Source: Escherichia phage phiWec190. From it: a DNA stretch of 64,000 nucleotides. The notes under the pieces were generated by a model. That model was not told the origin of the DNA, ran no database searches, and saw nothing but the letters and a program-made list of their open reading frames with translations. Position 1 is the stretch's first letter, and each line of letters opens with the position of its first letter. Made by a program: the position numbers and the translations under genes. This document shows positions 35,905 through 47,322 of the stretch, piece after piece. Where the stretch lies: sequence record LC739539.1. One strand, written 5' to 3'.

Positions 35905-35925
35905 TCACTATCTGGAGTTAAGATC

Positions 35926-36123: not shown

Positions 36124-36129
36124 AAAGTA

Positions 36130-36190
36130 TTGACAATACGCAACAACCTGATAAGATGTATCACGTAGAGCGGCGGAATGGTCCACCGCT
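36130..36190 (+). promoter_or_regulatory. cassette promoter plus leader stem-loop (copy 2)
   Basis: TTGACA 36130-35, 16 nt, TAAGAT, leader GTAGAGCGGCGGAATGGTCCACCGCTC. Confidence 0.6.
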
Positions 36191-36213
36191 CACAACTAAG
36201 AGAGATTATCATC

Positions 36214-36486
36214 ATGGCATCATATAGCGCAACAATGATCGTAACTGGCACCACTGGCAAACCTATGAGCGGTGGCGGATCTTTCGCTAACATCAATATT
36301 GACGGGCGCTTATCCCTGGACGCAGCGATCGCCGTAGCGCGGGAAACATTTAAGAAAGAATGTAATTTCAACAAGCAAGATTATTTAGGTTTCGCTATTG
36401 AAAAAACCGCGCGCTTTGTGGATTATAAAAGCCCGAAAATGGTTGATACTACATTAACAGCAAGACAAGTAAACTTTTTGCTGTAA
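36214..36486 (+). CDS. small hypothetical protein (90 aa)
   Basis: Track ORF trimmed to MASYSATM... after RBS AAGAGAGA. Confidence 0.5.
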   Translation: MASYSATMIVTGTTGKPMSGGGSFANINIDGRLSLDAAIAVARETFKKECNFNKQDYLGFAIEKTARFVDYKSPKMVDTTLTARQVNFLL

Positions 36487-36496
36487 GGGGGCTAAC

Positions 36497-36757
36497 GTGC
36501 ACTTTCTTAAGGTATGCGGGAAGATCATAGCCTTTCGTAATGAGGAATTTTATAACCTTGCTCGTTATGTTATGATCTACCCTGGCAAGGTATATAAAAA
36601 CAGTCCGACAAGTTACACTATTTACAATGTGCTATCAGGTAAAACCACGGAGATCATAAAAGGAGGGGTGAGAGATTATCGTACATCTTTCTATCCTTGC
36701 CGTGATTCCGCCAGCTTATTTTTTGTGTGTGAAATGATTGTTAAAAGGGGTGTATAA
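36497..36757 (+). CDS. hypothetical protein (86 aa, GTG start)
   Basis: ORF track; RBS AAGGGGG. Confidence 0.45.
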   Translation: MHFLKVCGKIIAFRNEEFYNLARYVMIYPGKVYKNSPTSYTIYNVLSGKTTEIIKGGVRDYRTSFYPCRDSASLFFVCEMIVKRGV

Positions 36758-37314
36758 TGGGGCGCGAATATGTGATCCAGTCCTGGGTAAAACATGACGT
36801 TAATGATCCGCGCATTATACCGGACGACATGATCGATCATGCTCCTGGCTATAGTGGCGAGCAAGTAGGCAACAGATCGGCGCGTAGTCATGGGAATACC
36901 AAAACACGCAGCGATCGCCCTGGTTGGCTGGCAAATGGTAACGCTGACATTGCAAGCGCCGCAGATGATAGCGACGGCGCGAAAGATAATCCGCTGTACA
37001 AGGTAGATCCGGCTTTTCGTGTCCTGGATGAATACCCCAGCAAGATAGCGGCGCTTGATGCCGCGCTCGAAAGTAAGCGCATCACCTGGACGGCGTACAG
37101 TACTGCAAAAAGCGTATTAGATGGTAAGCTGATCCAAGCTGAAAGGAAATTGGCCAAAATTGCAGCCATAGCCCAGGAGGAAGACCAGGAAGAGGAAGAC
37201 GATCACGCGGTTGAGTGCATCACCTTTGATCACTTCCTTCCAGTCTTTGAGGCATCACAAGAAGAGAAGAAAGAAGCCGAAAAAAATTATCTTTATTTTG
37301 ATGATTTAGGTTGA
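36757..37314 (+). CDS. hypothetical protein (185 aa) with acidic C-terminus
   Basis: ORF track; stop/start overlap with upstream gene. Confidence 0.5.
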   Translation: MGREYVIQSWVKHDVNDPRIIPDDMIDHAPGYSGEQVGNRSARSHGNTKTRSDRPGWLANGNADIASAADDSDGAKDNPLYKVDPAFRVLDEYPSKIAALDAALESKRITWTAYSTAKSVLDGKLIQAERKLAKIAAIAQEEDQEEEDDHAVECITFDHFLPVFEASQEEKKEAEKNYLYFDDLG

Positions 37315-37368
37315 CAGGTAAAACGTGATCACTTATAGTTAACTCATAGGGCGGCAACGGTGCCGCTC
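37311..37368 (+). promoter_or_regulatory. cassette promoter plus leader stem-loop (copy 3)
   Basis: TTGACA 37311-16, 17 nt, TATAGT 37334-39, leader CATAGGGCGGCAACGGTGCCGCTCACAAC. Confidence 0.6.
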
Positions 37369-37388
37369 ACAACCGAAAGGATAGAAAA

Positions 37389-37472
37389 ATGTTTACTACT
37401 TCCCTGTTTTTTGCAATCAATTTTATTCCTGGTTTCCGTGCTGCACTTGAAATCATTCTTTGGACACTGTAA
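37389..37472 (+). CDS. micro-ORF hydrophobic peptide (27 aa)
   Basis: Hand-read MFTTSLFFAINFIPGFRAALEIILWTL right after leader and RBS AAAGGA; not in track. Confidence 0.4.
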   Translation: MFTTSLFFAINFIPGFRAALEIILWTL

Positions 37473-37479
37473 GGAAAAC

Positions 37480-37590
37480 ATGATGATCAAGAAAGAAAAC
37501 AGTTTGACAGTTGGAACGATTAACGCTATTATCTTGGTTGTTCCATTTTGGATCACCGTAGCAGTTATCACAACAATCATTTTCAAGTAA
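37480..37590 (+). CDS. micro-ORF membrane peptide (36 aa)
   Basis: MMIKKENSLTVGTINAIILVVPFWITVAVITTIIFK; in-frame tail of track ORF 37360..37590, whose annotated start lies inside the stem-loop. Confidence 0.4.
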   Translation: MMIKKENSLTVGTINAIILVVPFWITVAVITTIIFK

Positions 37591-37600
37591 GGGGCACACC

Positions 37601-37792
37601 ATGTTTAAAAATATCACTGGCAACGTAGCAACATTGAAAGCAGGTGACAAGGTAGAATTGCACCGGATCACAATGACAGTAGCGCACATTGAAAAAGTGC
37701 CACCGCATCACCGCAAGATCTCGCTAACTTGCAACAAGGGGCGTAACATTACCGCCACATTGCACGAAAAAGATAACGTAGTCATTCTATAA
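37601..37792 (+). CDS. small hypothetical protein (63 aa)
   Basis: ORF track; RBS AAGGGG. Confidence 0.45.
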   Translation: MFKNITGNVATLKAGDKVELHRITMTVAHIEKVPPHHRKISLTCNKGRNITATLHEKDNVVIL

Positions 37793-37802
37793 GGCGGACA
37801 CT

Positions 37803-38084
37803 ATGAGCAAGGTAATTAGTCACGAAAAACTAAGCCCTACCCTATCGATCAGTGAATGCAACGATGGTTATTGGCTATACGATGAAACGCGCGGCATGAA
37901 TTTATCGATGCAAGCGAAAACCGAACAAGCGGCATATGTGCAAGCCCTGGAATATTACCAGCGACGACTACAGGAAGTTGAGAACAATTATAAAAGCCTG
38001 AAATCAAAGGTTGATCACTTTATCAGCCAGGCGGCAGATGACGACGATGATCACTATTGCGAGCGGTGCGGATCATACAGTTAA
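37803..38084 (+). CDS. small hypothetical protein (93 aa)
   Basis: ORF track; C-terminal CERCGS. Confidence 0.45.
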   Translation: MSKVISHEKLSPTLSISECNDGYWLYDETRGMNLSMQAKTEQAAYVQALEYYQRRLQEVENNYKSLKSKVDHFISQAADDDDDHYCERCGSYS

Positions 38085-38092
38085 AAATATCC

Positions 38093-38154
38093 TTGACAAC
38101 GTTTCAAAAAGTAGTAAGCTGTATCACATAGGGCGGCGGAATGGTCCACCGCTC
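38093..38154 (+). promoter_or_regulatory. cassette promoter plus leader stem-loop (copy 4)
   Basis: TTGACA 38093-98, TAAGCT, leader CACATAGGGCGGCGGAATGGTCCACCGCTC. Confidence 0.55.
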
Positions 38155-38174
38155 AAAACAGAAGAGAGAATATC

Positions 38175-38420
38175 ATGAAACACTTATCATCTATCACCAA
38201 TCACAATGAAATCTTTGTTAATGAAAAAGGTTACGCCTGGATTCAGTTAAAAGAGATGAAAAATAACCGTCGTGTAACGGTTGTTCGTAAAATTAAAAGC
38301 AAGCCTTTTAGTAACTTCTCGATTGATACCGTGCGGATCAAGAATGAAGAATACTTGATCGATAGCCAAATCACTTGGAGCTTAACGGCATCAGCCGCCG
38401 CACCATATTTCGCAAACTAA
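38175..38420 (+). CDS. small hypothetical protein (81 aa)
   Basis: ORF track. Confidence 0.5.
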   Translation: MKHLSSITNHNEIFVNEKGYAWIQLKEMKNNRRVTVVRKIKSKPFSNFSIDTVRIKNEEYLIDSQITWSLTASAAAPYFAN

Positions 38421-38431
38421 GAAAAAAACGT

Positions 38432-38488
38432 TTGACACTGTTTAAAATTCTGTTATAGTTTATCACGTAGGGCGGCAATGGTGCCGCC
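38432..38488 (+). promoter_or_regulatory. cassette promoter plus leader stem-loop (copy 5)
   Basis: TTGACA 38432-37, 16 nt, TATAGT, leader CACGTAGGGCGGCAATGGTGCCGCC. Confidence 0.6.
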
Positions 38489-38509
38489 AACAATAAAAAG
38501 GTTATCATC

Positions 38510-38689
38510 ATGGCTATCATTGCAAAAACTGAAATCGTGGGCTTAGATTCCATTCTTCTGACATATAAGGAAACGTTAGGAATGTATGTAGTAACCTATG
38601 GGGATTATGTGCATGAATACGAATATATTGATCTTGCTTTCGAATGTTACATTCGTCAGGTCAATCAAGCCTATAATGATTATCGTTAA
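38510..38689 (+). CDS. small hypothetical protein (59 aa, not in track)
   Basis: Hand-read MAIIAKTEIVGLDSILLTYKETLGMYVV... Confidence 0.4.
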   Translation: MAIIAKTEIVGLDSILLTYKETLGMYVVTYGDYVHEYEYIDLAFECYIRQVNQAYNDYR

Positions 38690-38708
38690 AAGTTTTAGTC
38701 TTGTGCTA

Positions 38709-38761
38709 TTGACAATAGGCGATAGTACAAGCATAATAACTTTTATCGGGAATACTTCCCA
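38709..38761 (+). promoter_or_regulatory. cassette promoter with variant leader hairpin (copy 6)
   Basis: TTGACA 38709-14, 17 nt, CATAAT 38732-37, hairpin GGGAA-TAC-TTCCC. Confidence 0.5.
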
Positions 38762-38786
38762 CTAACCAAAAAGAGAGAGTAAGAAC

Positions 38787-39152
38787 ATGGCTAAAAATAT
38801 CAATGTGTCCGCTTATGCTACCCTGGCTAACACTGCTAAAATCGAACTATCCAGCATTGAAGCAGTGCACATTAGCGCCCGTCGCTGGTTTCAACAGTCC
38901 TACGGTAATACATATTTTTCTTTAAGTGTGGACGTCGAGATCTGCGGTAAATTGATTGAAGTGGTTAACGTTCCGTTTCAATATGGCTATGGTGATCATT
39001 TTGATACCGTCGCCCTGGAAGAATTTAGCAAGGTTATCAACCTTGAAGGCAAAGAATTTTCACGCGGCAGCTATCTTTCCCGTTTTTGCCGTGACAATGG
39101 GATCGCTGTATACAGTCATGCAAGCGATGTTAAGCGTAAAAAAGATTTATAA
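38787..39152 (+). CDS. hypothetical protein (121 aa)
   Basis: ORF track. Confidence 0.5.
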   Translation: MAKNINVSAYATLANTAKIELSSIEAVHISARRWFQQSYGNTYFSLSVDVEICGKLIEVVNVPFQYGYGDHFDTVALEEFSKVINLEGKEFSRGSYLSRFCRDNGIAVYSHASDVKRKKDL

Positions 39153-39158
39153 AAGACG

Positions 39159-39220
39159 TTGACAGCACGAATAAAAAGAGTAAACTGTATTACATAGGGC
39201 GCGGGAATAGTTCCCGCCCC
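39159..39220 (+). promoter_or_regulatory. cassette promoter plus leader stem-loop (copy 7)
   Basis: TTGACA 39159-64, 16 nt, TAAACT, leader ACATAGGGCGCGGGAATAGTTCCCGCCCC. Confidence 0.6.
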
Positions 39221-39241
39221 ACTCAAAGAGAGATTAACATC

Positions 39242-39481
39242 ATGGCTAAATCAAAAATGTTCTTAGGTCACAAAAATAAAAATCATTGGAATGTAAGCCT
39301 TTGGATTAACAACGATGAATCATTGTATCGGTTGGCCCTGGACTTTATTAACGATAGCACTAATCGCAATGATGCGGCCCGTCATATGATGCTATTTTTA
39401 CAAGAGACTGGACAAGATAAGACTCCAGACGGTTTCAAATATAGCACTACTGCGATCCGCGCCGCGATGGTCGGAATGTAA
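39242..39481 (+). CDS. small hypothetical protein (79 aa)
   Basis: ORF track. Confidence 0.5.
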   Translation: MAKSKMFLGHKNKNHWNVSLWINNDESLYRLALDFINDSTNRNDAARHMMLFLQETGQDKTPDGFKYSTTAIRAAMVGM

Positions 39482-39490
39482 TAAAAACAG

Positions 39491-39548
39491 TTGACAACGT
39501 TTTAAATTAGTGTAAGATGTATCACATAGGGGCGACAAGCGCCCCGCC
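39491..39548 (+). promoter_or_regulatory. cassette promoter plus leader stem-loop (copy 8)
   Basis: TTGACA 39491-96, 16 nt, TAAGAT, leader CACATAGGGGCGACAAGCGCCCCGCC. Confidence 0.6.
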
Positions 39549-39568
39549 TAACAGAAGAGAGAAAAATC

Positions 39569-39796
39569 ATGGCTATCAATATTGTTCGCGTATCCGGCAC
39601 CGTTGGCACTTCCCAGGTTATAGCCGTTGTAACAAATAAAAAGATTAATGATGTATGTGAGATCTTGAATAAGTGGGCTATTGCTAATTTTGGGGAATAT
39701 GCGAGCGTTGAGTACATCGAATCTTATCAGGTGCCAACCATCAGCCTGACCGATCTCAACGTTGATCGCCTGTTATGCCTGGACGAATTAATCTGA
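39569..39796 (+). CDS. small hypothetical protein (75 aa)
   Basis: ORF track. Confidence 0.5.
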   Translation: MAINIVRVSGTVGTSQVIAVVTNKKINDVCEILNKWAIANFGEYASVEYIESYQVPTISLTDLNVDRLLCLDELI

Positions 39797-39805
39797 AAAA
39801 GATTG

Positions 39806-39862
39806 TTGACACGGGAAAGAAAAAGAGTAAACTGTATTACGTAGGGCGGCAATGGTGCCGCC
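39806..39862 (+). promoter_or_regulatory. cassette promoter plus leader stem-loop (copy 9)
   Basis: TTGACA 39806-11, 16 nt, TAAACT, leader ACGTAGGGCGGCAATGGTGCCGCC. Confidence 0.6.
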
Positions 39863-39881
39863 AGCAAGAAGAGAGATTATC

Positions 39882-40097
39882 ATGATGGCTAATATCCGCA
39901 CACTGTTAAAAAATGCAAGTCGAGTTTTATTTTCCGATCACGATTATTTCAATAAAGACATTACAGGCGTTAAGAACATCAAAGATGTAAAAAGTGTTAT
40001 GGGTATATATTGCAATGTGAAACGTGTTGGAACTTTTAGCAACAAGGTAGTATATCAGGCAGGGGATTACAATTTTACACTAACAATCTTAAATTAA
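39882..40097 (+). CDS. small hypothetical protein (71 aa)
   Basis: Track ORF trimmed to MMANIRT... after leader. Confidence 0.45.
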   Translation: MMANIRTLLKNASRVLFSDHDYFNKDITGVKNIKDVKSVMGIYCNVKRVGTFSNKVVYQAGDYNFTLTILN

Positions 40098-40100
40098 AGC

Positions 40101-40162
40101 TTGCAATCCCCATAAAATAAAGTAAACTGTATTACATCAAGGCGGCGGAATGGTCCACCGCC
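40101..40162 (+). promoter_or_regulatory. cassette promoter plus leader stem-loop (copy 10)
   Basis: TTGCAA 40101-06, 16 nt, TAAACT, leader ACATCAAGGCGGCGGAATGGTCCACCGCC. Confidence 0.55.
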
Positions 40163-40186
40163 TAACAAAGAGAAGAGGAAAACATC

Positions 40187-40354
40187 ATGATTACTTTTAC
40201 TACCCGTGAAGCCGCTCGCAACGTTGCACGTAAAGTTAACGCCGCCAACCTGGGCGCTACGCTTAAAGCCCCTGTAAAAGATACATCAGGCGCGTGGATC
40301 TTCCCTGGTCTGCGTCATGCTGATAACTTGGGCACGTTAAGCCGTAACAAATAA
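40187..40354 (+). CDS. small basic protein (55 aa, not in track)
   Basis: Hand-read MITFTTREAARNVARKVNAANLGATLKAPVKDTSGAWIFPGLRHADNLGTLSRNK. Confidence 0.4.
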   Translation: MITFTTREAARNVARKVNAANLGATLKAPVKDTSGAWIFPGLRHADNLGTLSRNK

Positions 40355-40368
40355 GGTTAGCCCTTCGT

Positions 40369-40396
40369 AATAGCGCCCCGCTCAATAGGCGCTATT
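40369..40396 (+). other. intercistronic 9-bp-stem hairpin
   Basis: AATAGCGCC-CCGCTCAATA-GGCGCTATT, immediately upstream of RBS for 40435. Confidence 0.45.
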
Positions 40397-40434
40397 GAGA
40401 AGAGAAACCACTTATCACAAAGAGAGAAAACATC

Positions 40435-40656
40435 ATGATCACTTTCGCTATTGTCGCCGTTGTCGCTGGTCAAGTTTACGTGAACGATACATTCACCACC
40501 GAAGACAAAGCAGCAGGAGATATCACCGCCGCTTATAACGAGTGCAAGGAAGTAGGAAGGATGTTAGCGCCTTGCTTCCTTATGAGTGAACGCCAGGACG
40601 GGATCACGGTGTTTACTAACATTGAAACAGGATATCAAATGATAGTAGAAAAATGA
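40435..40656 (+). CDS. small hypothetical protein (73 aa)
   Basis: ORF track. Confidence 0.45.
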   Translation: MITFAIVAVVAGQVYVNDTFTTEDKAAGDITAAYNECKEVGRMLAPCFLMSERQDGITVFTNIETGYQMIVEK

Positions 40657-40718
40657 TTGACAAGTTTTAAAAATCCGGTAAGATGTAACACGTAGGGCGG
40701 CAATGGTGCCGCTCACAA
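40656..40718 (+). promoter_or_regulatory. cassette promoter plus leader stem-loop (copy 11)
   Basis: TTGACA 40656-61, 16 nt, TAAGAT, leader ACACGTAGGGCGGCAATGGTGCCGCTCACAAC. Confidence 0.6.
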
Positions 40719-40733
40719 CAGAAGAGAGACACC

Positions 40734-41087
40734 ATGAAAGCACAAAATGCAATTAAACTTTATATTCTGGCCTCAATTGATTATAGCGAGTATAGCATCA
40801 CAGAAGAGAAAGAGAAGATCGCGGAATTGATGCGACGTTTTAAGAATGAGTACTGGTATCCCTATAACCAAGAATACTACAATCATAACGTTATCAGAGC
40901 AATAGCCTCATGGTTACAAGGTTTACCGTCAGATATCAATATCGCTTTCGAATATTGGGAAGTAGATCGGTTGTTAACATCCTGGGGATACATTAGCGAG
41001 CGTAGCAGCGAAAGCAAGATCCAGAAAGAAAGGGAAAACTATTGGCTATACCTTGCAGGAGTGATCCTTGCACTTTCCCACGAATAA
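40734..41087 (+). CDS. hypothetical protein (117 aa)
   Basis: ORF track. Confidence 0.5.
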   Translation: MKAQNAIKLYILASIDYSEYSITEEKEKIAELMRRFKNEYWYPYNQEYYNHNVIRAIASWLQGLPSDINIAFEYWEVDRLLTSWGYISERSSESKIQKERENYWLYLAGVILALSHE

Positions 41088-41103
41088 AAAGTTTTAAAAG
41101 TAG

Positions 41104-41165
41104 TTGACAGGCATCAAACAATAAAGTAAATTTAAACACGTAGGGCGGCAATGGTGCCGCTCACA
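41104..41165 (+). promoter_or_regulatory. cassette promoter plus leader stem-loop (copy 12)
   Basis: TTGACA 41104-09, TAAATT, leader ACACGTAGGGCGGCAATGGTGCCGCTCACAAC. Confidence 0.55.
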
Positions 41166-41183
41166 ACAAAAAGAGGAAACATC

Positions 41184-41330
41184 ATGAATACATCTAATCG
41201 CGCCGAAAAAATCCAATCTTCCAAAACTCGCGCAGCGTGGAATGAAGAAGTGGTCCGCAAGGGCGACAAGCGCAACAAGACTAAGCGCGACCGCACCGAT
41301 AAACGTGCATGGCTGGACCTGGAAGACTAA
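41184..41330 (+). CDS. small highly basic protein (48 aa, not in track)
   Basis: Hand-read MNTSNRAEKIQSSKTRAAWNEEVVRKGDKRNKTKRDRTDKRAWLDLED. Confidence 0.4.
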   Translation: MNTSNRAEKIQSSKTRAAWNEEVVRKGDKRNKTKRDRTDKRAWLDLED

Positions 41331-41338
41331 CAAAACAA

Positions 41339-41361
41339 GGGCGCAAATAGCGCCCTTTCTT
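41339..41361 (+). terminator. rho-independent terminator
   Basis: GGGCGC-AAATA-GCGCCC then TTTCTT. Confidence 0.6.
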
Positions 41362-41386
41362 ATATCTAACGAGAGGATAACAGCAC

Positions 41387-41572
41387 ATGACCTTAAACGA
41401 GATTAAAACCGCCTACAACGCAACGAACAAAGTAGCAGCCCGTTACCGCGACGAATACGGATTTATTGCGCAAGGCGTGATCCTGGGCTTATCTAATGAT
41501 GGTTTGATTTACATTGATGCTTATCATAACCAGGTTAAACCTGAAAATGTTATCAGTATAAAATATCTTTAA
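41387..41572 (+). CDS. small hypothetical protein (61 aa)
   Basis: ORF track; RBS GAGAGGA. Confidence 0.45.
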   Translation: MTLNEIKTAYNATNKVAARYRDEYGFIAQGVILGLSNDGLIYIDAYHNQVKPENVISIKYL

Positions 41573-41578
41573 AAGTGG

Positions 41579-41638
41579 TTGACACCATAATCAGACCTGA
41601 TAAGATGTATCACGTAGGGCGGCAATGGTACCGCGCTC
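41579..41638 (+). promoter_or_regulatory. cassette promoter plus leader stem-loop (copy 13)
   Basis: TTGACA 41579-84, 16 nt, TAAGAT, leader CACGTAGGGCGGCAATGGTACCGCGCTC. Confidence 0.55.
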
Positions 41639-41654
41639 GTTTGAGGATCAAACT

Positions 41655-41939
41655 ATGGTTAAAGCTAACACGGTGCTACTGTTTTCCCTGGTTAATGATG
41701 CCGCTTACTTGTCCAACATGACGCAAGATGATAGCACATTAACGGCAACGTTTACCGATGGACTTAACCGAGTGATCATCGTTTCACTGAAAACAGGGAG
41801 TAAAGGCTTTTACTCGTTGGCTTATCATTGGGTAACAGACAGCGACGAGACAAGCCAGGACTATAGCGCCCCGTTCCCTGAATCAATGGCACGGGAGATC
41901 ATCGCCGCCGTTGTAAACGATGGTTTATTTACTGCATAA
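41655..41939 (+). CDS. hypothetical protein (94 aa)
   Basis: Track ORF trimmed to MVKANTV... Confidence 0.45.
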   Translation: MVKANTVLLFSLVNDAAYLSNMTQDDSTLTATFTDGLNRVIIVSLKTGSKGFYSLAYHWVTDSDETSQDYSAPFPESMAREIIAAVVNDGLFTA

Positions 41940-41958
41940 AAATAATTTAGAAAAAGGT

Positions 41959-42020
41959 TTGCAATCATTTTGAGATAGTGTATATTTAATTCATAGGGCG
42001 GCGGGAATAGTTCCCAAAGC
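41959..42020 (+). promoter_or_regulatory. cassette promoter plus leader stem-loop (copy 14)
   Basis: TTGCAA 41959-64, 16 nt, TATATT, leader CATAGGGCGGCGGGAATAGTTCCC. Confidence 0.5.
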
Positions 42021-42038
42021 AAGCGAGAGGATAACACA

Positions 42039-42158
42039 ATGAACAAATACACAGTAGAATACACGGTAGAGAATCCGGCAGTATCCGAAGGGCGTAAGAC
42101 TACGATCGCCGTTGGTGTTATCGCTTTCGTTATCACTATCTTATCAATCATCTTATAA
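42039..42158 (+). CDS. micro-ORF membrane peptide (39 aa)
   Basis: Hand-read MNKYTVEYTVENPAVSEGRKTTIAVGVIAFVITILSIIL; C-terminal TM helix. Confidence 0.4.
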   Translation: MNKYTVEYTVENPAVSEGRKTTIAVGVIAFVITILSIIL

Positions 42159-42168
42159 GGTGCACACC

Positions 42169-42348
42169 ATGAAAACAGTAAACGTTATCAGATCATCAAA
42201 CATCATTAAAGAGATCGCCCTTGCCACTGGTATTGAGATCGAGGAAGTGATCGCGCTCAATCTTACAGAAAACGATCTGCGCAACTATGAAGCGGAAAGC
42301 GTGAAAGCAAGTGGCGCGGTCCTGGCATATAATCCGGCTAACAAATAG
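42169..42348 (+). CDS. small hypothetical protein (59 aa)
   Basis: In-frame tail of track ORF 42112..42348 from MKTVNV... Confidence 0.4.
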   Translation: MKTVNVIRSSNIIKEIALATGIEIEEVIALNLTENDLRNYEAESVKASGAVLAYNPANK

Positions 42349-42408
42349 TTTGACAAGCTGAATCAACCTGATAAGATGTATCACATAGGGGCGACAAGCG
42401 CCCCGCCT
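42349..42408 (+). promoter_or_regulatory. cassette promoter plus leader stem-loop (copy 15)
   Basis: TTGACA 42349-54, 17 nt, TAAGAT, leader CACATAGGGGCGACAAGCGCCCCGCC. Confidence 0.6.
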
Positions 42409-42428
42409 AACAGAAGAGAGAAAAAATC

Positions 42429-42707
42429 ATGACCATCGTTAAATTAACAACCGAAGAAATGAAAACAATGTTAACCACTAATTTACAAAATTGGAAAATT
42501 GGTGTTGACGTTGAAACAGTGTGCAAGTTGAACGACAAACTAACACCGGACGACATTGAAACGATCATCCGTGCAGATTTCTATGATGCTTTATACGATG
42601 ATTCCACAGTCCTTGAAACGATGTTGGATAACGCTTGGATCAATCCCGATTTGGCGGCTTATGGTCATCTTGCCTTTGAAGCCATCCATAATGTTTATAA
42701 TCGTTAA
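42429..42707 (+). CDS. hypothetical protein (92 aa)
   Basis: ORF track. Confidence 0.5.
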   Translation: MTIVKLTTEEMKTMLTTNLQNWKIGVDVETVCKLNDKLTPDDIETIIRADFYDALYDDSTVLETMLDNAWINPDLAAYGHLAFEAIHNVYNR

Positions 42708-42717
42708 GGGGGATAAC

Positions 42718-42849
42718 ATGAATCCGAAAGATATGCAAGCATGGAAAGGGTACGACGATCTAAGCGCCTTGCGCAATAAGTCAAGCCGTAACCTTAGACG
42801 GTTGGAAGCAAAGAAAAAGAAAAATATTAAGGGGGTGCACCATGTATAA
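42718..42849 (+). CDS. small basic protein (43 aa)
   Basis: In-frame tail of track ORF 42556..42849 from MNPKDMQAWKGY..., RBS AAGGGGG. Confidence 0.35.
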   Translation: MNPKDMQAWKGYDDLSALRNKSSRNLRRLEAKKKKNIKGVHHV

Positions 42850-43069
42850 CAATATCATTGCAGATCGTGCCGCTACTATTCGCCCAGGAGATCGGGCGCG
42901 TTTACAGGTTGGCGTTTATCCGTTCCCGTCTTATGACTTCTGCAAGGTAACGGCTATCGAAAACAATCCGTTTGATCCTGACACCGTGATCATCTGGTAC
43001 GAAGGAAGGGGAAACAGATATGAAGATATCTTGGGGCGTGATGAATCCGTAAACATTTTACGCTATTAA
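42842..43069 (+). CDS. small hypothetical protein (75 aa)
   Basis: ORF track. Confidence 0.45.
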   Translation: MYNNIIADRAATIRPGDRARLQVGVYPFPSYDFCKVTAIENNPFDPDTVIIWYEGRGNRYEDILGRDESVNILRY

Positions 43070-43202
43070 CAGCCTGTAAGCTGTACGGCTGTATTACAGC
43101 CTAAAAGGTGTAAGGCAATGCAATCCCCTACCTGATTTAATTAGTGCGCCCTGGCTTATACTGGGGCGTTATACATTGTAGAAAATAATTTTAAAAATAT
43201 GC

Positions 43203-43263
43203 TTGACGCCTGGAACGTTGGCGCGTATAGTTTATCACATAGGGCGGCGGAATGGTCCACCGC
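43203..43263 (+). promoter_or_regulatory. cassette promoter plus leader stem-loop (copy 16)
   Basis: TTGACG 43203-08, 17 nt, TATAGT, leader CACATAGGGCGGCGGAATGGTCCACCGC. Confidence 0.6.
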
Positions 43264-43283
43264 AAAACAGAAGAGAAAACATC

Positions 43284-43469
43284 ATGACTACTTACAAGAA
43301 AACGAAAGAATTGGTAAAAGGCGATCTGGTTAGAAATATCCTGAATGGTAAGTTTTATGCAATGGTATCTATTGAACGTTATCAAACTGGTTACATTGTT
43401 AAACTTGATAGTCGTGACGATGGTTGCGAGTTTTACACTGAATATAATGATCGTCACATAGTCAAATAA
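43284..43469 (+). CDS. small hypothetical protein (61 aa)
   Basis: Track ORF trimmed to MTTYKKT... Confidence 0.45.
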   Translation: MTTYKKTKELVKGDLVRNILNGKFYAMVSIERYQTGYIVKLDSRDDGCEFYTEYNDRHIVK

Positions 43470-43480
43470 ACCATAAACCA

Positions 43481-43497
43481 GGGGCGACAAGCGCCCC
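43481..43497 (+). other. intercistronic hairpin GGGGCG-ACAAG-CGCCCC
   Basis: Same hairpin as in leaders of copies 8 and 15, here without a promoter. Confidence 0.45.
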
Positions 43498-43517
43498 ATA
43501 ACAAGAAAGGTAACAAG

Positions 43518-43700
43518 ATGAAAAAGATTGATTCTTCCCGTGTATTGTGTGAAATTGATGTTATCATCGGCAACGGCACCGGACACCATAAACTGATTAA
43601 GGGTAAGGCTTATCGCCTGGCAACGCTCAAAGCAGATATGCGCCTAACAGCAAGCCAGATCAAAAAGTTTTTTCGCCCCTTGTTGACAACAGCAAAGTAA
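43518..43700 (+). CDS. small basic protein (60 aa)
   Basis: ORF track. Confidence 0.45.
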   Translation: MKKIDSSRVLCEIDVIIGNGTGHHKLIKGKAYRLATLKADMRLTASQIKKFFRPLLTTAK

Positions 43701-43740
43701 GCGCGTAGTATTCATCTTGTAGGGCGGCAATGGTGCCGCC
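43683..43740 (+). promoter_or_regulatory. cassette promoter plus leader stem-loop (copy 17)
   Basis: TTGACA 43683-88 (inside 3' end of previous gene), 17 nt, TAGTAT, leader TTGTAGGGCGGCAATGGTGCCGCC. Confidence 0.55.
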
Positions 43741-43758
43741 GATGGTGAGGGTAATATA

Positions 43759-43896
43759 ATGAAAACTTTCAATGCAACAGCCTCGACAATTGGTTATATT
43801 ATTACAGTGCAAGCCGTGGACCTGGTAGCAGCAGCAAACAAGATTAAAAGAATGATCCCGCCAGGTAGTGAATTTTCCGTTTGGGAAGTAAAATAA
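43759..43896 (+). CDS. small hypothetical protein (45 aa, not in track)
   Basis: Hand-read MKTFNATASTIGYIITVQAVDLVAAANKIKRMIPPGSEFSVWEVK. Confidence 0.4.
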   Translation: MKTFNATASTIGYIITVQAVDLVAAANKIKRMIPPGSEFSVWEVK

Positions 43897-43898
43897 AT

Positions 43899-43961
43899 CT
43901 TGACAGTATTTTGTTTTCTGGTAAAGTGTATCACGTAGGGCGGGGCAATAAGGCAACGCCC
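43899..43961 (+). promoter_or_regulatory. cassette promoter plus leader stem-loop (copy 18)
   Basis: TTGACA 43899-904, 16 nt, TAAAGT, leader CACGTAGGGCGGGGCAATAAGGCAACGCCC. Confidence 0.55.
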
Positions 43962-43979
43962 ATTAAAGAGGGTAGCATC

Positions 43980-44084
43980 ATGTTAGAGAAAATTTTCACG
44001 GTTGCAATAGTTGGCCTGGCGTTATCGGTTGGAGTGGTTGCAACTATGGCTAATATGATCCTATCTTCTCACGGTATCGGTTAA
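43980..44084 (+). CDS. micro-ORF membrane peptide (34 aa)
   Basis: In-frame tail of track ORF 43881..44084: MLEKIFTVAIVGLALSVGVVATMANMILSSHGIG. Confidence 0.4.
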   Translation: MLEKIFTVAIVGLALSVGVVATMANMILSSHGIG

Positions 44085-44094
44085 GGTGAAACAA

Positions 44095-44310
44095 ATGTTC
44101 ACGAACAAAGCAGGCAAAACGGAATTTTTACGCGGCTTACAAGTTGGTAAGCCTGAGATCTGGCATTGCAGCAAGTCCGCACATAACGAAATGAAAGACT
44201 TTACCGCATCGTTGCAACGTGTTAAAATAACTATCACGCAGAAAAAAGCCCTGATAGTGGCAGAAAACGAGATCCCACAGACCATTATCATAATTGAGCG
44301 CACATCATAA
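44095..44310 (+). CDS. small hypothetical protein (71 aa)
   Basis: Track ORF 44086..44310; ATG at 44095 has AAGGTG RBS. Confidence 0.45.
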   Translation: MFTNKAGKTEFLRGLQVGKPEIWHCSKSAHNEMKDFTASLQRVKITITQKKALIVAENEIPQTIIIIERTS

Positions 44311-44325
44311 TTTTATTTATATTGA

Positions 44326-44387
44326 ATAAATAGTATTGACACAGATCACCAGTGTGATAATATTTACCACGTAGGGCGGCAATGGTG
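44326..44387 (+). promoter_or_regulatory. cassette promoter plus leader stem-loop (copy 19)
   Basis: TTGACA 44326-31, 16 nt, TAATAT, leader ACCACGTAGGGCGGCAATGGTGCCGCTCACC. Confidence 0.6.
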
Positions 44388-44412
44388 CCGCTCACCATTT
44401 GGAGTTATAACC

Positions 44413-44814
44413 ATGAACATTACGATCCTTTCTTATACTGACGTTGTTAACATTGCTAAAACTTTCGGCGCTGAAGCCCTGAAATATGCGGTTTCCAATG
44501 GTAATCTGACAAAGGAACAATGCTACCTGATTGGAGGCTGTAAACGTTGGGCGGTGTCTCGCAACATTGAGATCGAAAACGTCAACGATGGCAACACTGA
44601 ATATAGTGTTGATGCCGTTTTCCAGTCGGTTGATTTAGGCGGGATCTATAACACTAATCTGAATGATGTGCGTATCGTTCGCACTGGTTTCGGTGCTTAT
44701 GATGTACCAGTCCGCGAAGCTATGGAGAAAGGTTATATTAATCCGACCATTTTAAATATGATCATGACTGAGACTAAACAGCGTAACGATGCACGGGCTA
44801 TCTTGGGCCTGTAA
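44413..44814 (+). CDS. hypothetical protein (133 aa)
   Basis: ORF track. Confidence 0.5.
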   Translation: MNITILSYTDVVNIAKTFGAEALKYAVSNGNLTKEQCYLIGGCKRWAVSRNIEIENVNDGNTEYSVDAVFQSVDLGGIYNTNLNDVRIVRTGFGAYDVPVREAMEKGYINPTILNMIMTETKQRNDARAILGL

Positions 44815-44834
44815 GTAAAAACTCCAAAAAACTA

Positions 44835-44896
44835 TTGACACGGATCGTCAATATGATAATATTTACCACGTAGGGCGGGAATAGTTCCCGCTTCCT
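44835..44896 (+). promoter_or_regulatory. cassette promoter plus leader stem-loop (copy 20; near-duplicate of copy 19)
   Basis: TTGACA 44835-40, 16 nt, TAATAT, leader ACCACGTAGGGCGGGAATAGTTCCCGC. Confidence 0.6.
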
Positions 44897-44914
44897 GGAA
44901 AAAGGTAAAACATC

Positions 44915-45160
44915 ATGTACCAGACAACTAAAATTGGCAATATCTACCACGACCCGAAAAATTCGCGCGGTATGGCTTGGATCAAAATGCCTAACAACAT
45001 TTGGTATTATGCGTTAAAAGGGAATACTTTGATGGGTAATCGTTGGACCTGGATCAAAGAGAATAACAACATTATCAACGATGAAAAAATCAGCGAAATG
45101 GTAGCAACAGGTAAGGTTGTAAAGGAAGAAAACACCGATCGCGTAACGCGTCAATTCTAA
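44915..45160 (+). CDS. small hypothetical protein (81 aa)
   Basis: ORF track. Confidence 0.5.
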   Translation: MYQTTKIGNIYHDPKNSRGMAWIKMPNNIWYYALKGNTLMGNRWTWIKENNNIINDEKISEMVATGKVVKEENTDRVTRQF

Positions 45161-45163
45161 AAA

Positions 45164-45178
45164 GGGCGGCAACGCCCC
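45164..45178 (+). other. intercistronic hairpin with GCAA tetraloop
   Basis: GGGCG-GCAA-CGCCC between stop of 44915..45160 and RBS of 45200. Confidence 0.45.
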
Positions 45179-45199
45179 ACTATCAGAAAGGAAAAGATT

Positions 45200-45424
45200 A
45201 TGAGTATTGTTAGAATGTTACAAGCTATTAAACTGGCTGAATTGTCGGATCTCAAGGTAGAAATAACTGAATATGATTATGGGGATCTAAGCGTGCATAT
45301 CTTCCCGCTTCCAGTTGATGGCGCTTATGCCTGGTGCTATGCTGATAACTTCCCGCCGGATGACACAAAGGGCGTAACTGACTTTATTTTAAAGTCGATA
45401 GTAGAAAACAGCCAACGTAATTAA
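45200..45424 (+). CDS. small hypothetical protein (74 aa)
   Basis: ORF track. Confidence 0.45.
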   Translation: MSIVRMLQAIKLAELSDLKVEITEYDYGDLSVHIFPLPVDGAYAWCYADNFPPDDTKGVTDFILKSIVENSQRN

Positions 45425-45429
45425 TCAGC

Positions 45430-45445
45430 GGGGCGGCAACGCCCC
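45430..45445 (+). other. intercistronic hairpin with GCAA tetraloop
   Basis: GGGGCG-GCAA-CGCCCC upstream of 45476. Confidence 0.45.
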
Positions 45446-45475
45446 ATTAAACGCAATAGGAAGAGGATAGACAAC

Positions 45476-45766
45476 ATGAAAAAGATGATCGCAGTAGTTG
45501 CCCTGGTTGTTGGTATTAACGCGCCTGTAATGGCTAACGATTTGCCTGAATCGATCACGTTAACCGATATCAACGCAGTAAACCGGATCGGGGTTAATTA
45601 TCGCCTATGCCTTGCCGCTAAAACTTTTAAGGACGGGGAAACAGAATACCACGGATTCGAGGGTGTCCGGTGCGGTGAGCTTGCACGCGACCTTAAGGAA
45701 GATCCAGACCTTGAGGCCATACCGATGACCGTAAACGGTAAAGCTTACGTAAACCGCCAACAATGA
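45476..45766 (+). CDS. secreted/periplasmic protein (96 aa)
   Basis: Signal peptide MKKMIAVVALVVGINAPVMA. Confidence 0.5.
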   Translation: MKKMIAVVALVVGINAPVMANDLPESITLTDINAVNRIGVNYRLCLAAKTFKDGETEYHGFEGVRCGELARDLKEDPDLEAIPMTVNGKAYVNRQQ

Positions 45767-45777
45767 GAAAGGTAATC

Positions 45778-45897
45778 ATGACAATGGGGATCATAGTAGC
45801 AACGCTGGCGCTAATCCCCTTCCTGGTTAAATATGTGCTAATCGGTGTTGTTCTGGTAGTCAGTGACCTATTGGAAACGGTTGGCACCTGGTTTTAA
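45778..45897 (+). CDS. micro-ORF membrane peptide (39 aa, not in track)
   Basis: Hand-read MTMGIIVATLALIPFLVKYVLIGVVLVVSDLLETVGTWF. Confidence 0.4.
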   Translation: MTMGIIVATLALIPFLVKYVLIGVVLVVSDLLETVGTWF

Positions 45898-45909
45898 GGA
45901 GTAATAAAA

Positions 45910-46101
45910 ATGAATGCAGAACAAGTTAGAAAGGTATTAGCAGCGTTGCGTTATCACAACCATAGCAAGGTAAAGAATGATCCTGATTATGTGGATTCAA
46001 GCCTGGAAGAAGACACATTGCAAGCTATAAGCCATATGCAGGAATTGCTTAAGCGTATGACAGAGAAGAACAGATCTGATTATATAGGTGACGAAGTATA
46101 A
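45910..46101 (+). CDS. small hypothetical protein (63 aa)
   Basis: ORF track. Confidence 0.45.
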   Translation: MNAEQVRKVLAALRYHNHSKVKNDPDYVDSSLEEDTLQAISHMQELLKRMTEKNRSDYIGDEV

Positions 46102-46105
46102 AATA

Positions 46106-46168
46106 GCTTGCATGATGTGCCGGATAGTGTAAGATGTATTTCGTAGGGCGGCAATGGTGCCGCTCACA
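46106..46168 (+). promoter_or_regulatory. cassette promoter plus leader stem-loop (copy 21)
   Basis: TTGCAT 46106-11, 16 nt, TAAGAT, leader TCGTAGGGCGGCAATGGTGCCGCTCACAAC. Confidence 0.6.
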
Positions 46169-46186
46169 ACTGGAAGGAAAAACACC

Positions 46187-46390
46187 ATGACTACAGCTAA
46201 CCGCCTGATCGCCGTCCTGAATAAAGCAAAGGCTAACCGCCTGGATGTTCAAATCAAAGAGCAAGCAAATGGCGAGATCCTTGCTACGGTGTCCGATGGC
46301 GGTTATGTATCGGAATCATTTTTATCAGGGAGCTTAGATCATCTTGTTTGGAAATTAGAAATTATCGTGGAGGATATGCAGATCATCTAA
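46187..46390 (+). CDS. small hypothetical protein (67 aa)
   Basis: Track ORF trimmed to MTTANRL... Confidence 0.45.
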   Translation: MTTANRLIAVLNKAKANRLDVQIKEQANGEILATVSDGGYVSESFLSGSLDHLVWKLEIIVEDMQII

Positions 46391-46400
46391 TCTTTACAAA

Positions 46401-46430
46401 ACAGGGCTTGTTTTTGTCCTGTTTTTTGTT
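46401..46430 (+). terminator. rho-independent terminator
   Basis: ACAGGG-CTTGTTTTTG-TCCTGT then TTTTTT. Confidence 0.55.
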
Positions 46431-46564
46431 ATGCTTATTGAACGGGCGGCACTGGCAACGGGGGAGGTAATCACCGGACGACCCCGCTATATATTGATAG
46501 CTAACACCTATCAAACAACAAAACATCAAAGAGATAAACTATCAAATCTTTACAATTCTACCTA

Positions 46565-46623
46565 TTGACACCGGATCACGCTTATATTATTATTTATCAC
46601 GTAGGGCGGGAATGTTTCCCGTC
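46565..46623 (+). promoter_or_regulatory. cassette promoter plus leader stem-loop (copy 22)
   Basis: TTGACA 46565-70, about 17 nt, TATTAT, leader CACGTAGGGCGGGAATGTTTCCCG. Confidence 0.55.
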
Positions 46624-46641
46624 TAATATAGGAATAACACC

Positions 46642-46875
46642 ATGATCGGACAAATTAAAAGCACTAAATCGAACGTTAACGGCAATGTTTCACACTTTAT
46701 CGGTGATAATGAGAGAGGTACACCCTACGCCGCCGTAACCGTTCAACCTGACGGGGATTATTGGTTTACCGTTTATGGATCTTATTCCTTTGGACGTCCG
46801 GCGCATGATAAGATCTTGCAAGCGGTTAAGCCTACAGGGAAGAATATCACAGCAGAAAAATTTTATAAAAAATAG
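46642..46875 (+). CDS. small hypothetical protein (77 aa)
   Basis: ORF track. Confidence 0.5.
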   Translation: MIGQIKSTKSNVNGNVSHFIGDNERGTPYAAVTVQPDGDYWFTVYGSYSFGRPAHDKILQAVKPTGKNITAEKFYKK

Positions 46876-46936
46876 CTTGCTTTATACACCCTGTTAACTT
46901 ATAGTTATTGCGTAGGGCGAGCAATACAGCAAGCCC
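46876..46936 (+). promoter_or_regulatory. cassette promoter plus leader stem-loop (copy 23)
   Basis: TTGCTT 46876-81, 17 nt, TATAGT, leader GCGTAGGGCGAGCAATACAGCAAGCCC. Confidence 0.5.
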
Positions 46937-46953
46937 ACAAAGAGGAAAAGAAG

Positions 46954-47322
46954 ATGAGCAAATCAGCAATTAAAGCAGTTGAAAAAGCGCAAGAAGTGAT
47001 CGCAACGTCCACCACTGGCGCAAAGGTTGATCTCGTTGGTTATCTGAAAGATGAAACTATCCGTAAAAATTGGCGCAACGCTGATCTACTGGCTTGCTTA
47101 TTGATTAATAGTGTCGCTGATGCTTTCCAGTGTGAAACAGCCGAGAGCCTGGAGGCAAACTTGTTCGACAATATGGATCAAGCCATTGAAACCTATATTC
47201 AATCAAATTTAGATAGCTGGAACAATAAAACATGGCCTGACAGCTTACGCGATACAACTGATCAACTGATCCGCCTTGCCTTGATGGTTGAACGCGATAA
47301 CGTTTACAACCGCACAAAGTAA
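46954..47322 (+). CDS. hypothetical protein (122 aa)
   Basis: ORF track. Confidence 0.5.
   Translation: MSKSAIKAVEKAQEVIATSTTGAKVDLVGYLKDETIRKNWRNADLLACLLINSVADAFQCETAESLEANLFDNMDQAIETYIQSNLDSWNNKTWPDSLRDTTDQLIRLALMVERDNVYNRTK

Follow-up and report, generated by a model that had tools for sequence, protein, structure and literature searches.

Several very small bacterial membrane proteins, including MgrB (47 amino acids, aa), AcrZ (49 aa), and KdpF (29 aa), consist of a single helix and function via a larger membrane protein, and the 27-aa YohP serves as a model for the insertion of very small membrane proteins (PMC12648545, PMC7549839). Among phage proteins, Gp11 of PhiNM1, a small early membrane protein, binds MurG and DivIC. 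Specific envelope targets are also known for Gp56 of Bacillus phage SPO1 and for the 37-aa lysis protein of phage M, which blocks MurJ. Here we analyze five micro-open reading frames (micro-ORFs), O1 to O5, in a 64,000-nucleotide (nt) stretch of Escherichia phage phiWec190 (LC739539.1), referred to below as the window. A reading made from the sequence alone (the sequence-only reading) had proposed that these ORFs sit behind cassette promoters or ribosome-binding sites (RBSs) and that each encodes essentially one transmembrane (TM) helix. The roles it had listed (inhibition of host membrane proteins, superinfection exclusion, toxin-like action) are generic, though plausible in kind. All five are present where it had placed them, with the translations it gave. 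Our own reading, to which we assign a probability of roughly 0.55, is that O2 to O5, and probably O1, are genuine early accessory genes and that O2 to O5 anchor partner-binding motifs in the inner membrane.

Counterparts of two of the peptides have been catalogued in phage rV5, where gp170 and gp173 were listed as "membrane protein, 1 TMD" (one TM domain) by TMHMM/Phobius (Kropinski et al. 2013, PMC3606486, Table S3). The rV5 gp173 (ORF173) and FV3_00160 are homologues of O4, which is 53% identical to the rV5 protein, shares its C-terminal tail, and is likewise followed by a 71-aa gene. The rV5 gp170 (ORF170) and FV3_00157 are homologues of O5, which is 57% identical to the rV5 protein, has the same 44-aa length, and is likewise preceded by a signal-peptide gene. 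Both rV5 genes lie in the same early small-gene region as O4 and O5 do here; in rV5 this equivalent region holds 88 mainly small ORFs, with sigma-70-type promoters annotated. For O3, the described counterparts are members of PHROG 10979 such as BP63 gp05 and Schickermooser gp148, which have the same 38- to 41-aa layout, a polar V-x-Y...N-P-A-Y-x-E-G-R segment followed by a C-terminal hydrophobic helix; the window O3 has NPAV where these relatives have NPAY.

The gene status of the micro-ORFs was assessed by comparison. Each ORF was searched by tblastn against ~50,700 phage records, the loci of 14 relatives were fetched, homologous ORFs were extracted, and the ratio of nonsynonymous to synonymous substitution rates (dN/dS) was calculated for pairs by the Nei-Gojobori method. 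O2 to O5 are open in each relative that possesses them, with 7 to 10 distinct diverged homologues per ORF, and nearly all homologues have the alternative sense frames, +2 and +3, closed. Pairwise dN/dS values are mostly ~0.1-0.45 at dS of 0.4 to >2 (0.08-0.47 for O2 against the window sequence and up to 0.67 in other homologue pairs; 0.12-0.6 for O3; 0.15-0.6 for O5). Because the frames are intact in diverged homologues and dN/dS is well below 1, the comparison indicates that O2 to O5 are real genes with purifying selection acting on the peptide. Codon usage, scored as a log-likelihood ratio (LLR), is higher for all five ORFs than for 62 decoys, ORFs of comparable size taken off-frame or from the antisense strand, and a codon shuffle test gave P values of <0.001 to 0.02 for O1 to O3, 0.07 for O4, and 0.19 for O5.

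Two other ways of reading these frames were rejected. Antisense frame -2, which is in codon register, is open in most homologues, and minus-strand genes were therefore considered; such openness is expected whenever a coding frame avoids the codons TTA, CTA, and TCA, codon usage in the antisense ORFs is of noncoding type, and the promoters, hairpins, and Shine-Dalgarno (SD) sequences are all oriented along the plus strand. Nor are the micro-ORFs N-terminal anchors split off from the genes downstream: the arrangement, including the stops, is conserved at dS >1, and, by coordinate arithmetic, only one of the four downstream genes shares a frame with its micro-ORF.

Membrane character was evaluated by summing the Hessa biological hydrophobicity scale over 19-residue windows; applied without position weighting, the best sums are approximate and come to -1.8 (O2), -2.6 (O3), -0.6 (O4), -1.3 (O5), and +5.3 kcal/mol (O1). 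The proposal that each peptide is a single TM helix thus holds for O2 to O5 and fails for O1, the best window of which has Asn, Pro, Gly, Arg, and Glu inside. Only 1 of the 62 decoys is TM-like, and hence the hydrophobicity of O2 to O5 is no by-product of composition. The grand average of hydropathy (GRAVY) of the peptides is 0.8-1.7. Single-sequence AlphaFold2 gives O5 a single helix over residues 2-43 with a predicted local distance difference test score of 94, and gives O3 a coil over residues 1-12 and a helix over residues 13-38. O2 to O5 share the dimensions of MgrB/AcrZ-type regulators, being at most 50 aa with a predicted spanning helix; O1 does not. In O2 to O5, the Lys and Arg residues lie on the N-terminal side of each helix. 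By the positive-inside rule the Lys/Arg-flanked side stays cytoplasmic, which predicts an N-in/C-out topology for these four peptides.

The four families differ in reach and in the part of the peptide that is best kept. O3 belongs to PHROG 10979, "membrane protein" (category moron, auxiliary and host takeover; residues 1-39 of 39, E 9e-20), and is labelled "membrane protein" in several RefSeq phages. It was found in 183 phage records, down to ~40% identity in Salmonella and Cronobacter phages, with homologues in Seunavirus, in Rosemountvirus (BP63 gp05), and in an Enterobacter phage at profile E values of 1e-15 to 1e-17. Its N-terminal motif, V-x-Y-x-x-x-N-P-A-Y-x-E-G-R-K, persists into all three of these groups. 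Across subfamilies and genera, 10-12 of 19 motif residues are identical, compared with 4-9 of 18 in the TM core, where the helix keeps its hydrophobicity only. O4 corresponds to PHROG 14631 (residues 1-34 of 34, E 7e-22) and was found in 228 phage records, with Vequintavirus at 47-56% identity. In comparison with rV5, 12 of the C-terminal 14 residues of O4 are identical, in contrast to 5 of the preceding 19 (Fisher P 0.0013), so that the N-terminal hydrophobic part is nearly wholly replaced; the proportions of nonsynonymous and synonymous differences (pN and pS) in the C-terminal 14 codons are 0.06 and 0.50, and pN in the N-terminal part is 0.45. Because conservation in O3 and O4 is strongest in polar motifs that lie outside the hydrophobic core, while the core varies, the pattern suggests specific protein binding rather than generic membrane damage.

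O5 corresponds to PHROG 16005 (residues 1-44 of 44, E 1e-26) and was found in 114 phage records, with Vequintavirus at 64-73% identity. Conservation is highest at its N-terminal end (MRKVI..MGI) and its acidic C-terminal end (VSDLLETVGTWF). When 1.84 billion representative proteins were searched exhaustively without a profile, only 2 representative clusters were recovered, and there are thus no distant O5 relatives to learn from. O2 was found in 113 phage records, is intact in 10 distinct homologues, and reaches Klebsiella phages at 47-54% identity by tblastn (44-47% on local re-alignment); its N-terminal 23 residues are conserved, the N terminus and the first half of the helix (MIKKENSLTVGTINAI..VP.W) are kept, and its C terminus is variable in length. 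Neither O1 nor O2 has a PHROG match. Degenerate DNA scans with the O3 motif and the O4 tail recovered the same phage groups only. A single contig labelled as a bacterial metagenome-assembled genome carries the O3 peptide, and since this lone copy is BP63-like and of phage type, it does not represent a homologue of O3 or O4 in a host genome. Collectively, O2 to O5 represent four separate families of single-helix peptides that purifying selection maintains across Vequintavirinae and Stephanstirmvirinae, with O3 also in Rosemountvirus.

Comparison also fixes the gene models. Each of the five ORFs starts at an ATG preceded, at a distance of 4-8 nt, by an SD core of 4-5 nt. As the sequence-only reading had proposed, the ORFs lie behind cassette promoters or RBSs: O1, O3, and O4 are each the first ORF after a sigma-70-like promoter and leader hairpin, with an AGGA/GAGG SD 7-8 nt upstream; O2 and O5 are operon-internal and, with the starts originally assigned, begin 7-11 nt past the preceding ORF. 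Two of those starts required revision. For O5, ATG 45778 is 15 nt off: the conserved start is ATG 45763 (MRKVI...), which is present in 7 of 7 distinct O5 homologues and overlaps or abuts the upstream stop (ATGA or TAAnnATG), and the position of ATG 45778 is Ile in tuntematon, FV3, and rV5. The O2 ORF itself stands, but it opens with two adjacent ATGs, of which the second, at 37483, is the start that homologues conserve. In O1, the assigned frame is the coding-like one. On a mechanical gene map, in which the start with the best SD was taken for each stop codon and nonoverlapping ORFs were then tiled, the five ORFs exactly occupy otherwise empty gaps. The gaps before O1, O3, and O4 are 74-99 nt, each housing a promoter cassette, and the next gene begins 7-12 nt past each micro-ORF, its SD (TAAGG...) overlapping the micro-ORF stop. 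The coordinates of these features are collected in Table 1.

Table 1. Micro-ORFs, their cassettes and adjoining genes, and further small TM-competent ORFs in the window
Feature	Coordinates	Strand	Description
O1/O2 cassette	37311..37368	+	Promoter TTGACA-17-TATAGT 37311-37339; hairpin GGGCGGCAACGGTGCCGC 37349-37368
O1	37389..37472	+	27 aa, MFTTSLFFAINFIPGFRAALEIILWTL; first ORF of cassette; hydrophobic, non-canonical as TM helix
O2	37480..37590	+	36 aa (35 aa from ATG 37483); predicted single-pass membrane peptide, MIKKENSLTVGTINAIILVVPFWITVAVITTIIFK
Gene after O2	37601..37792	+	63 aa, soluble; 10 nt past O2; SD TAAGGGG overlaps O2 stop
O3 cassette	41958..42016	+	Weaker promoter TTTGCA/TTGCAA ... 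TATATT (41958-41986); decayed hairpin GGGAATAGTTCCC
O3	42039..42158	+	39 aa; predicted tail-anchored: polar N-terminal V-E-Y-x-x-x-N-P-A-x-x-E-G-R-K, then C-terminal TM helix
Gene after O3	42169..42348	+	59 aa, soluble; 10 nt past O3; PHROG 35944, unknown
O4 cassette	43900..43961	+	Promoter TTGACA-16-TAAAGT with TG extension (43900-43927); hairpin 43938-43961
O4	43980..44084	+	34 aa, MLEKIFTVAIVGLALSVGVVATMANMILSSHGIG; one hydrophobic segment and near-invariant tail ATM(A/S)NMILSS(H/N)GIG
Gene after O4	44095..44310	+	71 aa; 10 nt past O4; PHROG 5988, unknown
Gene before O5	45476..45766	+	96 aa; Sec-type signal peptide MKKMIAVVALVVGINAPVMA/ND (approximately VMA/ND; slash, cleavage site); two Cys; PHROG 9845
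O5	45763..45897	+	44 aa, MRKVIMTMGIIVATLALIPFLVKYVLIGVVLVVSDLLETVGTWF; start overlaps upstream stop as ATGA
Gene after O5	45910..46101	+	63 aa, soluble; 12 nt past O5; PHROG 9599, unknown
Extra small TM-competent ORFs	30906-31082, 31690-31851, 62031-62237, 56133-56195	+	SD and TM-competent segment
Extra small TM-competent ORFs	48347-48448, 48183-48293	-	SD and TM-competent segment

Existing records annotate varying subsets of the peptides, or use wrong frames or starts. The phiWec188 record annotates O3 alone of the five, and O2 appears as "hypothetical protein" in Schickermooser, tuntematon, and nepoznato. The Schickermooser record has O4 as a 52-aa version, rV5 ORF173 is annotated from an upstream start as 46 aa, and PsgM04F carries a 76-aa ORF over O1 and O2. 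The O3, O4, and O5 families are thus already catalogued, with function unassigned; what is new here are the corrected gene models and the unannotated O1.

The proposed mechanism takes the gene status, selection, TM competence, and cassette placement described above as its starting point, and from these we infer the membrane insertion, topology, and partner binding of O2 to O5. Host RNA polymerase would transcribe O1 to O5 from the sigma-70 promoters right after infection, and each would be translated from its own SD, O5 by stop/start coupling to the upstream signal-peptide gene. O2 to O5 would then insert into the E. coli inner membrane as single-pass peptides, their Lys/Arg-bearing N-terminal side facing the cytoplasm and their C terminus lying outside. 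A short conserved stretch of each peptide may contact a larger host inner-membrane or envelope protein, or a phage partner, and alter its activity. In O3 and O4, a conserved polar motif would be held at the membrane face by the hydrophobic helix. The candidate contact motifs are the predicted cytoplasmic VEYxxxNPAxxEGRK of O3, the predicted periplasmic TM(A/S)NMILSS(H/N)GIG of O4, the C-terminal stretch of O5 given above, and, for O2, the N-terminal MIKKENSLTVGTINA together with the first helix half. The peptides would thereby be compact candidates for phage factors that act early on the host inner membrane, each with a delimited conserved motif.

The described systems resemble O2 to O5 in design, not in sequence. 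PhiNM1 Gp11, SPO1 Gp56, and the phage M protein are likewise phage-encoded, small, and membrane-anchored, and Gp11 and Gp56 are early proteins; however, they show no sequence relationship to O2 to O5 and come from phages of other hosts, and O1 to O5 are smaller than Gp11 and Gp56. The periplasmic tail of MgrB is conserved, as is the tail of O4, but MgrB, AcrZ, and KdpF are host-encoded proteins with known partners and have no homology to O1 to O5.

The distribution marks the peptides as dispensable accessory genes, as is typical of host-takeover or inter-phage competition functions, because O5 is absent from isim, phi92 and phiWec186 have O4 but not the gene that follows it elsewhere, and O1 is confined to one lineage. 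In isim, both genes that flank O5 are seemingly present and adjacent, as judged by gene size, order, and VOG label only. The peptides are ordinary accessory early genes, and their architecture is unremarkable for a large lytic phage.

Several points weigh against our reading. O1 does not behave as a TM helix, and its copies are near-identical, leaving too little divergence for a selection test. The hydrophobic stretch of O4 is borderline at -0.6 kcal/mol and equally fits a cleavable signal peptide, and the hydrophobicity sums themselves are approximate. The codon usage of O5 is indistinguishable from composition-matched shuffles (P 0.19), though its comparative evidence is strong. Literature searches turned up no work on the expression, localisation, or interactions of the peptides or of their homologues, and no transcriptomic, Ribo-seq, proteomic, toxicity, or accessory-gene-screen data on these genes in rV5-, phi92-, or phAPEC8-like phages. 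Finally, the neighbouring genes all lack an assigned function in Pfam, NCBIfam, and PHROG, and the context therefore gives no functional hint.

O1 differs from the other four in its narrow distribution. It was found by tblastn, and also at the DNA level, in only five near-identical genomes (at least 96% identity), and a distant blastn search with the O1 segment found neither a source of the insertion nor a DNA relative beyond these genomes. It corresponds to an extra segment of ~85 nt; in Schickermooser, tuntematon, and nepoznato, the hairpin leads directly into O2. An AAGGA SD lies 7 nt upstream of the O1 ATG, the distance from the hairpin is as for the first genes of other cassettes, and the TAA stop sits within the O2 SD. 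Per codon, the LLR of O1 is +0.23 to +0.31 in its own frame, and the other two sense frames score -0.36 and -0.47; the value of +0.23 is the same as the average for 14 soluble small genes nearby (+0.23) and exceeds 62 of 62 decoys (mean -0.31, sd 0.16). O1 is probably translated, and there is a small possibility that this gene arose very recently at the start of an early cassette, either by insertion or de novo.

O1 might instead be an untranslated chance frame in a lineage-specific insertion, or the true product at this site might be the 76-aa GTG ORF (37360-37590) of PsgM04F. Chance frames are abundant, with 190 ORFs of at least 20 codons in 11.5 kb, and O1, besides being limited to five near-identical genomes, is unannotated in four of them and overlapped by the 76-aa annotation in PsgM04F. 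Its sole observed substitution, moreover, is nonsynonymous (F2S). However, the 76-aa frame starts within the hairpin stem without an SD, and the part of it that overlaps O1 scores -0.27 to -0.36 per codon, compared with +0.31 in the O1 frame. Against a chance frame stand the ATG and SD at the usual hairpin distance and a codon score reached by 0 of 3000 composition-preserving open shuffles. Comparison with phiWec186 and PsgM04F shows 0 and 1 differences, respectively, in the 84 nt of O1, where ~5 would be expected from the flanks, which differ by 2.6-3.6%; the two comparisons are non-independent, and this point is weak. We therefore consider both versions of this explanation unlikely, while according them some weight for O1.

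Superinfection exclusion would be an attractive specific case of the binding model: at least one of the peptides, lodged in the infected cell's inner membrane, would block the entry of later phage DNA by occupying a genome-delivery component. Phage proteins such as T4 Imm and HK97 gp15 block DNA entry of later-arriving phages. T4 Imm and Sp and HK97 gp15 are inner-membrane proteins that protect the infected or lysogenic cell, the T4 ones early in infection, but they are larger than O1 to O5 (~80-100 aa, often with two TM segments) and have no Pfam or PHROG similarity to them. In keeping with such a role, the peptides are early, predicted to reside in the inner membrane, and patchily distributed as accessory genes among competing rV5-like phages. 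Further, infection by the phiWec188/190 group reportedly depends on YhaH, an inner-membrane protein, and hence a blockable inner-membrane step exists. However, the Pfam, NCBIfam, and PHROG function searches revealed no similarity to a known exclusion protein, and O4 and O5 are near-identical in phages of different genera and receptors, a sameness that does not suggest a lineage-specific exclusion determinant. On balance, exclusion appears rather improbable.

Generic membrane damage is less probable again. The peptides would then shut off the host by depolarising or permeabilising its inner membrane without a specific protein target, as type I-toxin-like (TisB, Hok, Ibs, Ldr) or holin-like pores. 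Their length of 27-44 aa, their GRAVY values, and their single helix are as in type I toxins, and O2 to O5 share with Hok, TisB, Ibs, and Ldr the small, hydrophobic, single-helix design. The best-kept parts of O3 and O4 are nevertheless polar motifs, not the helix, while the core drifts, the opposite of what a generic pore former needs, and this sets the two peptides apart from type I toxins. Neither Pfam nor NCBIfam linked the peptides to Hok, Ldr, Ibs, or any further toxin family; hits at E <=1 were noise only (DUF3377, Tom5, SecE gamma), all below the cut-offs. No antitoxin RNA is evident: the window has no Rfam matches, and nearby minus-strand promoter-like sites reach only 9/12 matches, which is chance level, leaving no convincing antisense promoter. 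In addition, early in infection a lytic phage depends on the membrane staying energised.

For O4, the borderline TM competence allows a different fate, that of a pre-peptide whose Sec signal (residues 1-21 or 1-24) is cut after VVA21 or TMA24, freeing the 10- to 13-residue TM(A/S)NMILSS(H/N)GIG; the predicted released peptides may be TMANMILSSHGIG and NMILSSHGIG. By the -3/-1 rule, the N-terminal part can be read as a signal peptide with an n-h-c layout, consisting of MLEK, a 13-residue h-region (I5-V17), Gly18, and small residues at -3/-1 of two sites, and the layout is kept in rV5 (LIA/TMS/N; slashes, sites). The fast N-terminal part and the near-frozen C-terminal 14 residues are also the usual pattern of signal and mature sequences. 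TMHMM/Phobius, however, called the rV5 homologue a TMD and not a signal peptide (PMC3606486). Also against it, the putative mature peptide is fairly hydrophobic, neither adjacent gene is receptor-like (the two encode proteins of 45 and 71 aa without assigned function), and uncleaved regulators such as MgrB typically have conserved periplasmic tails too. We judge this processing to have a small chance of being correct; if true, the reading extends to rV5 gp173 and FV3_00160. With a slim likelihood, the freed peptide would work in the periplasm against a host envelope target, as an inhibitor, or serve as a lysis-released signal between rV5-like phages of Gram-negative hosts. The C-terminal short-peptide layout is compatible with that of the arbitrium peptide AimP, but neither an AimR-like receptor neighbour nor a lysis-lysogeny context is found here, and the subfamilies of the phage are described as lytic myoviruses. 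We know of no released-peptide system of this kind in the rV5-like group.

It is very unlikely that the micro-ORFs, O1 above all, are translated only to open the mRNA or hand ribosomes to the next gene with the peptide sequence being irrelevant, because, although each micro-ORF ends inside or beside the SD of the following gene, 7-12 nt before its ATG, and O1 sits between the hairpin and O2 with no selection on its amino acids apparent from comparison, O2 to O5 have dN/dS well below 1 and conserved residue motifs, O4 is retained where its downstream partner is deleted, and the codon usage of O1 is as gene-like as that of neighbouring real genes, which a spacer ORF would not need.

Anchoring of partner-binding motifs in the inner membrane thus remains our preferred reading of O2 to O5. 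The genes around them differ in how closely they accompany the peptides. The 96-aa PHROG 9845 gene is directly upstream of O5 in 7 of 7 relatives that have O5, and this signal-peptide protein and O5 may form a periplasmic protein/membrane peptide pair. The 71-aa gene after O4 is present in 8 of 10 relatives and is gone in phi92 and phiWec186, which retain O4. The pairing of O3 with the 59-aa gene is retained only in Phapecoctavirus. The 63-aa gene after O2 has no PHROG or Pfam function, and for the five peptides together with eight neighbours, Pfam, NCBIfam, and PHROG searches gave only unknown-function PHROGs and sub-threshold noise.

The phage of the window is a Stephanstirmvirinae coliphage. 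In a megablast search with positions 37000-46500, the closest match was phiWec188 (99.6% identity), which has been placed in a proposed new genus of Stephanstirmvirinae, and many genomes of Phapecoctavirus, Justusliebigvirus, and Vequintavirus matched at 80-93%. The strand bias flips near 30 kb, and the small-gene array that contains all five micro-ORFs occupies ~35.8-47 kb on the plus strand. At least 20 cassettes, each combining a promoter, a GC-rich hairpin, and a purine-rich RBS, divide positions 35800-47000 into units of one to four genes. The cassette promoter is near-consensus sigma-70, and the typical hairpin is GTAGGGCGGCAATGGTGCCGC; variants are GGGCGGCAATGGTGCCGC, GGCGGCGGAATGGTCCACCGC, and GGGGCGACAAGCGCCCC. 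The layout is reminiscent of the "promoter-early stem-loop" shuffling cassettes of T4. Rfam gave zero matches across the window, cassette hairpins included. In the O1/O2 cassette, a member of repeat families D2, D3, and D17, the promoter scores 11/12 matches in the promoter scan and the hairpin folds at -15.5 kcal/mol (z -2.4). The O3 cassette, of repeat family D17, scores 9/12 in the scan and folds weakly (z -1.2), and the O4 cassette hairpin folds at -15.8 kcal/mol (z -3.1).

A further near-consensus sigma-70 promoter lies inside O2 at 37504-37532 (TTGACA-17-TATTAT, 11/12), in the conserved N-terminal coding part. It is found in register (TTGACG ... TATCAT or TATTTT) in 8 of 8 E. coli-phage homologues and is not kept in 2 of 2 Klebsiella-phage homologues, whose peptide persists; this promoter may be a second constraint on the O2 DNA. 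Between O3 and O4, a three-gene cassette at 42429-43069 (92, 43, and 75 aa) is present in the window and not in phiWec188, which accounts for an 857-nt change in offset between the two phages.

Outside positions 37389-45897, the window holds more SD-bearing small ORFs (20-68 aa) with TM-competent segments (Table 1). The first two listed on the plus strand (58 and 53 aa), at the start of the plus-strand unit, are possible two-helix membrane proteins.

About nine AATGAnAATnATTCTCATT palindromes are arrayed at 35000-35215, in a noncoding stretch that separates divergent transcription units, and three more lie at 48129-48150, 48912-48933, and 49097-49118. They resemble the E. coli Fur box GATAATGATAATCATTATC, with 4 matches at 2-3 mismatches compared with 0.04 expected by chance, and might serve as operators, bound by host Fur or by a regulator of the phage, or as origin iterons. 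Lastly, PsgM04F (OR584014.1), which is labelled Pseudomonas, and the "Campylobacter phage" records MG0656xx are ~96-99% identical to this coliphage group in the early region, and the host labels of these records look doubtful.

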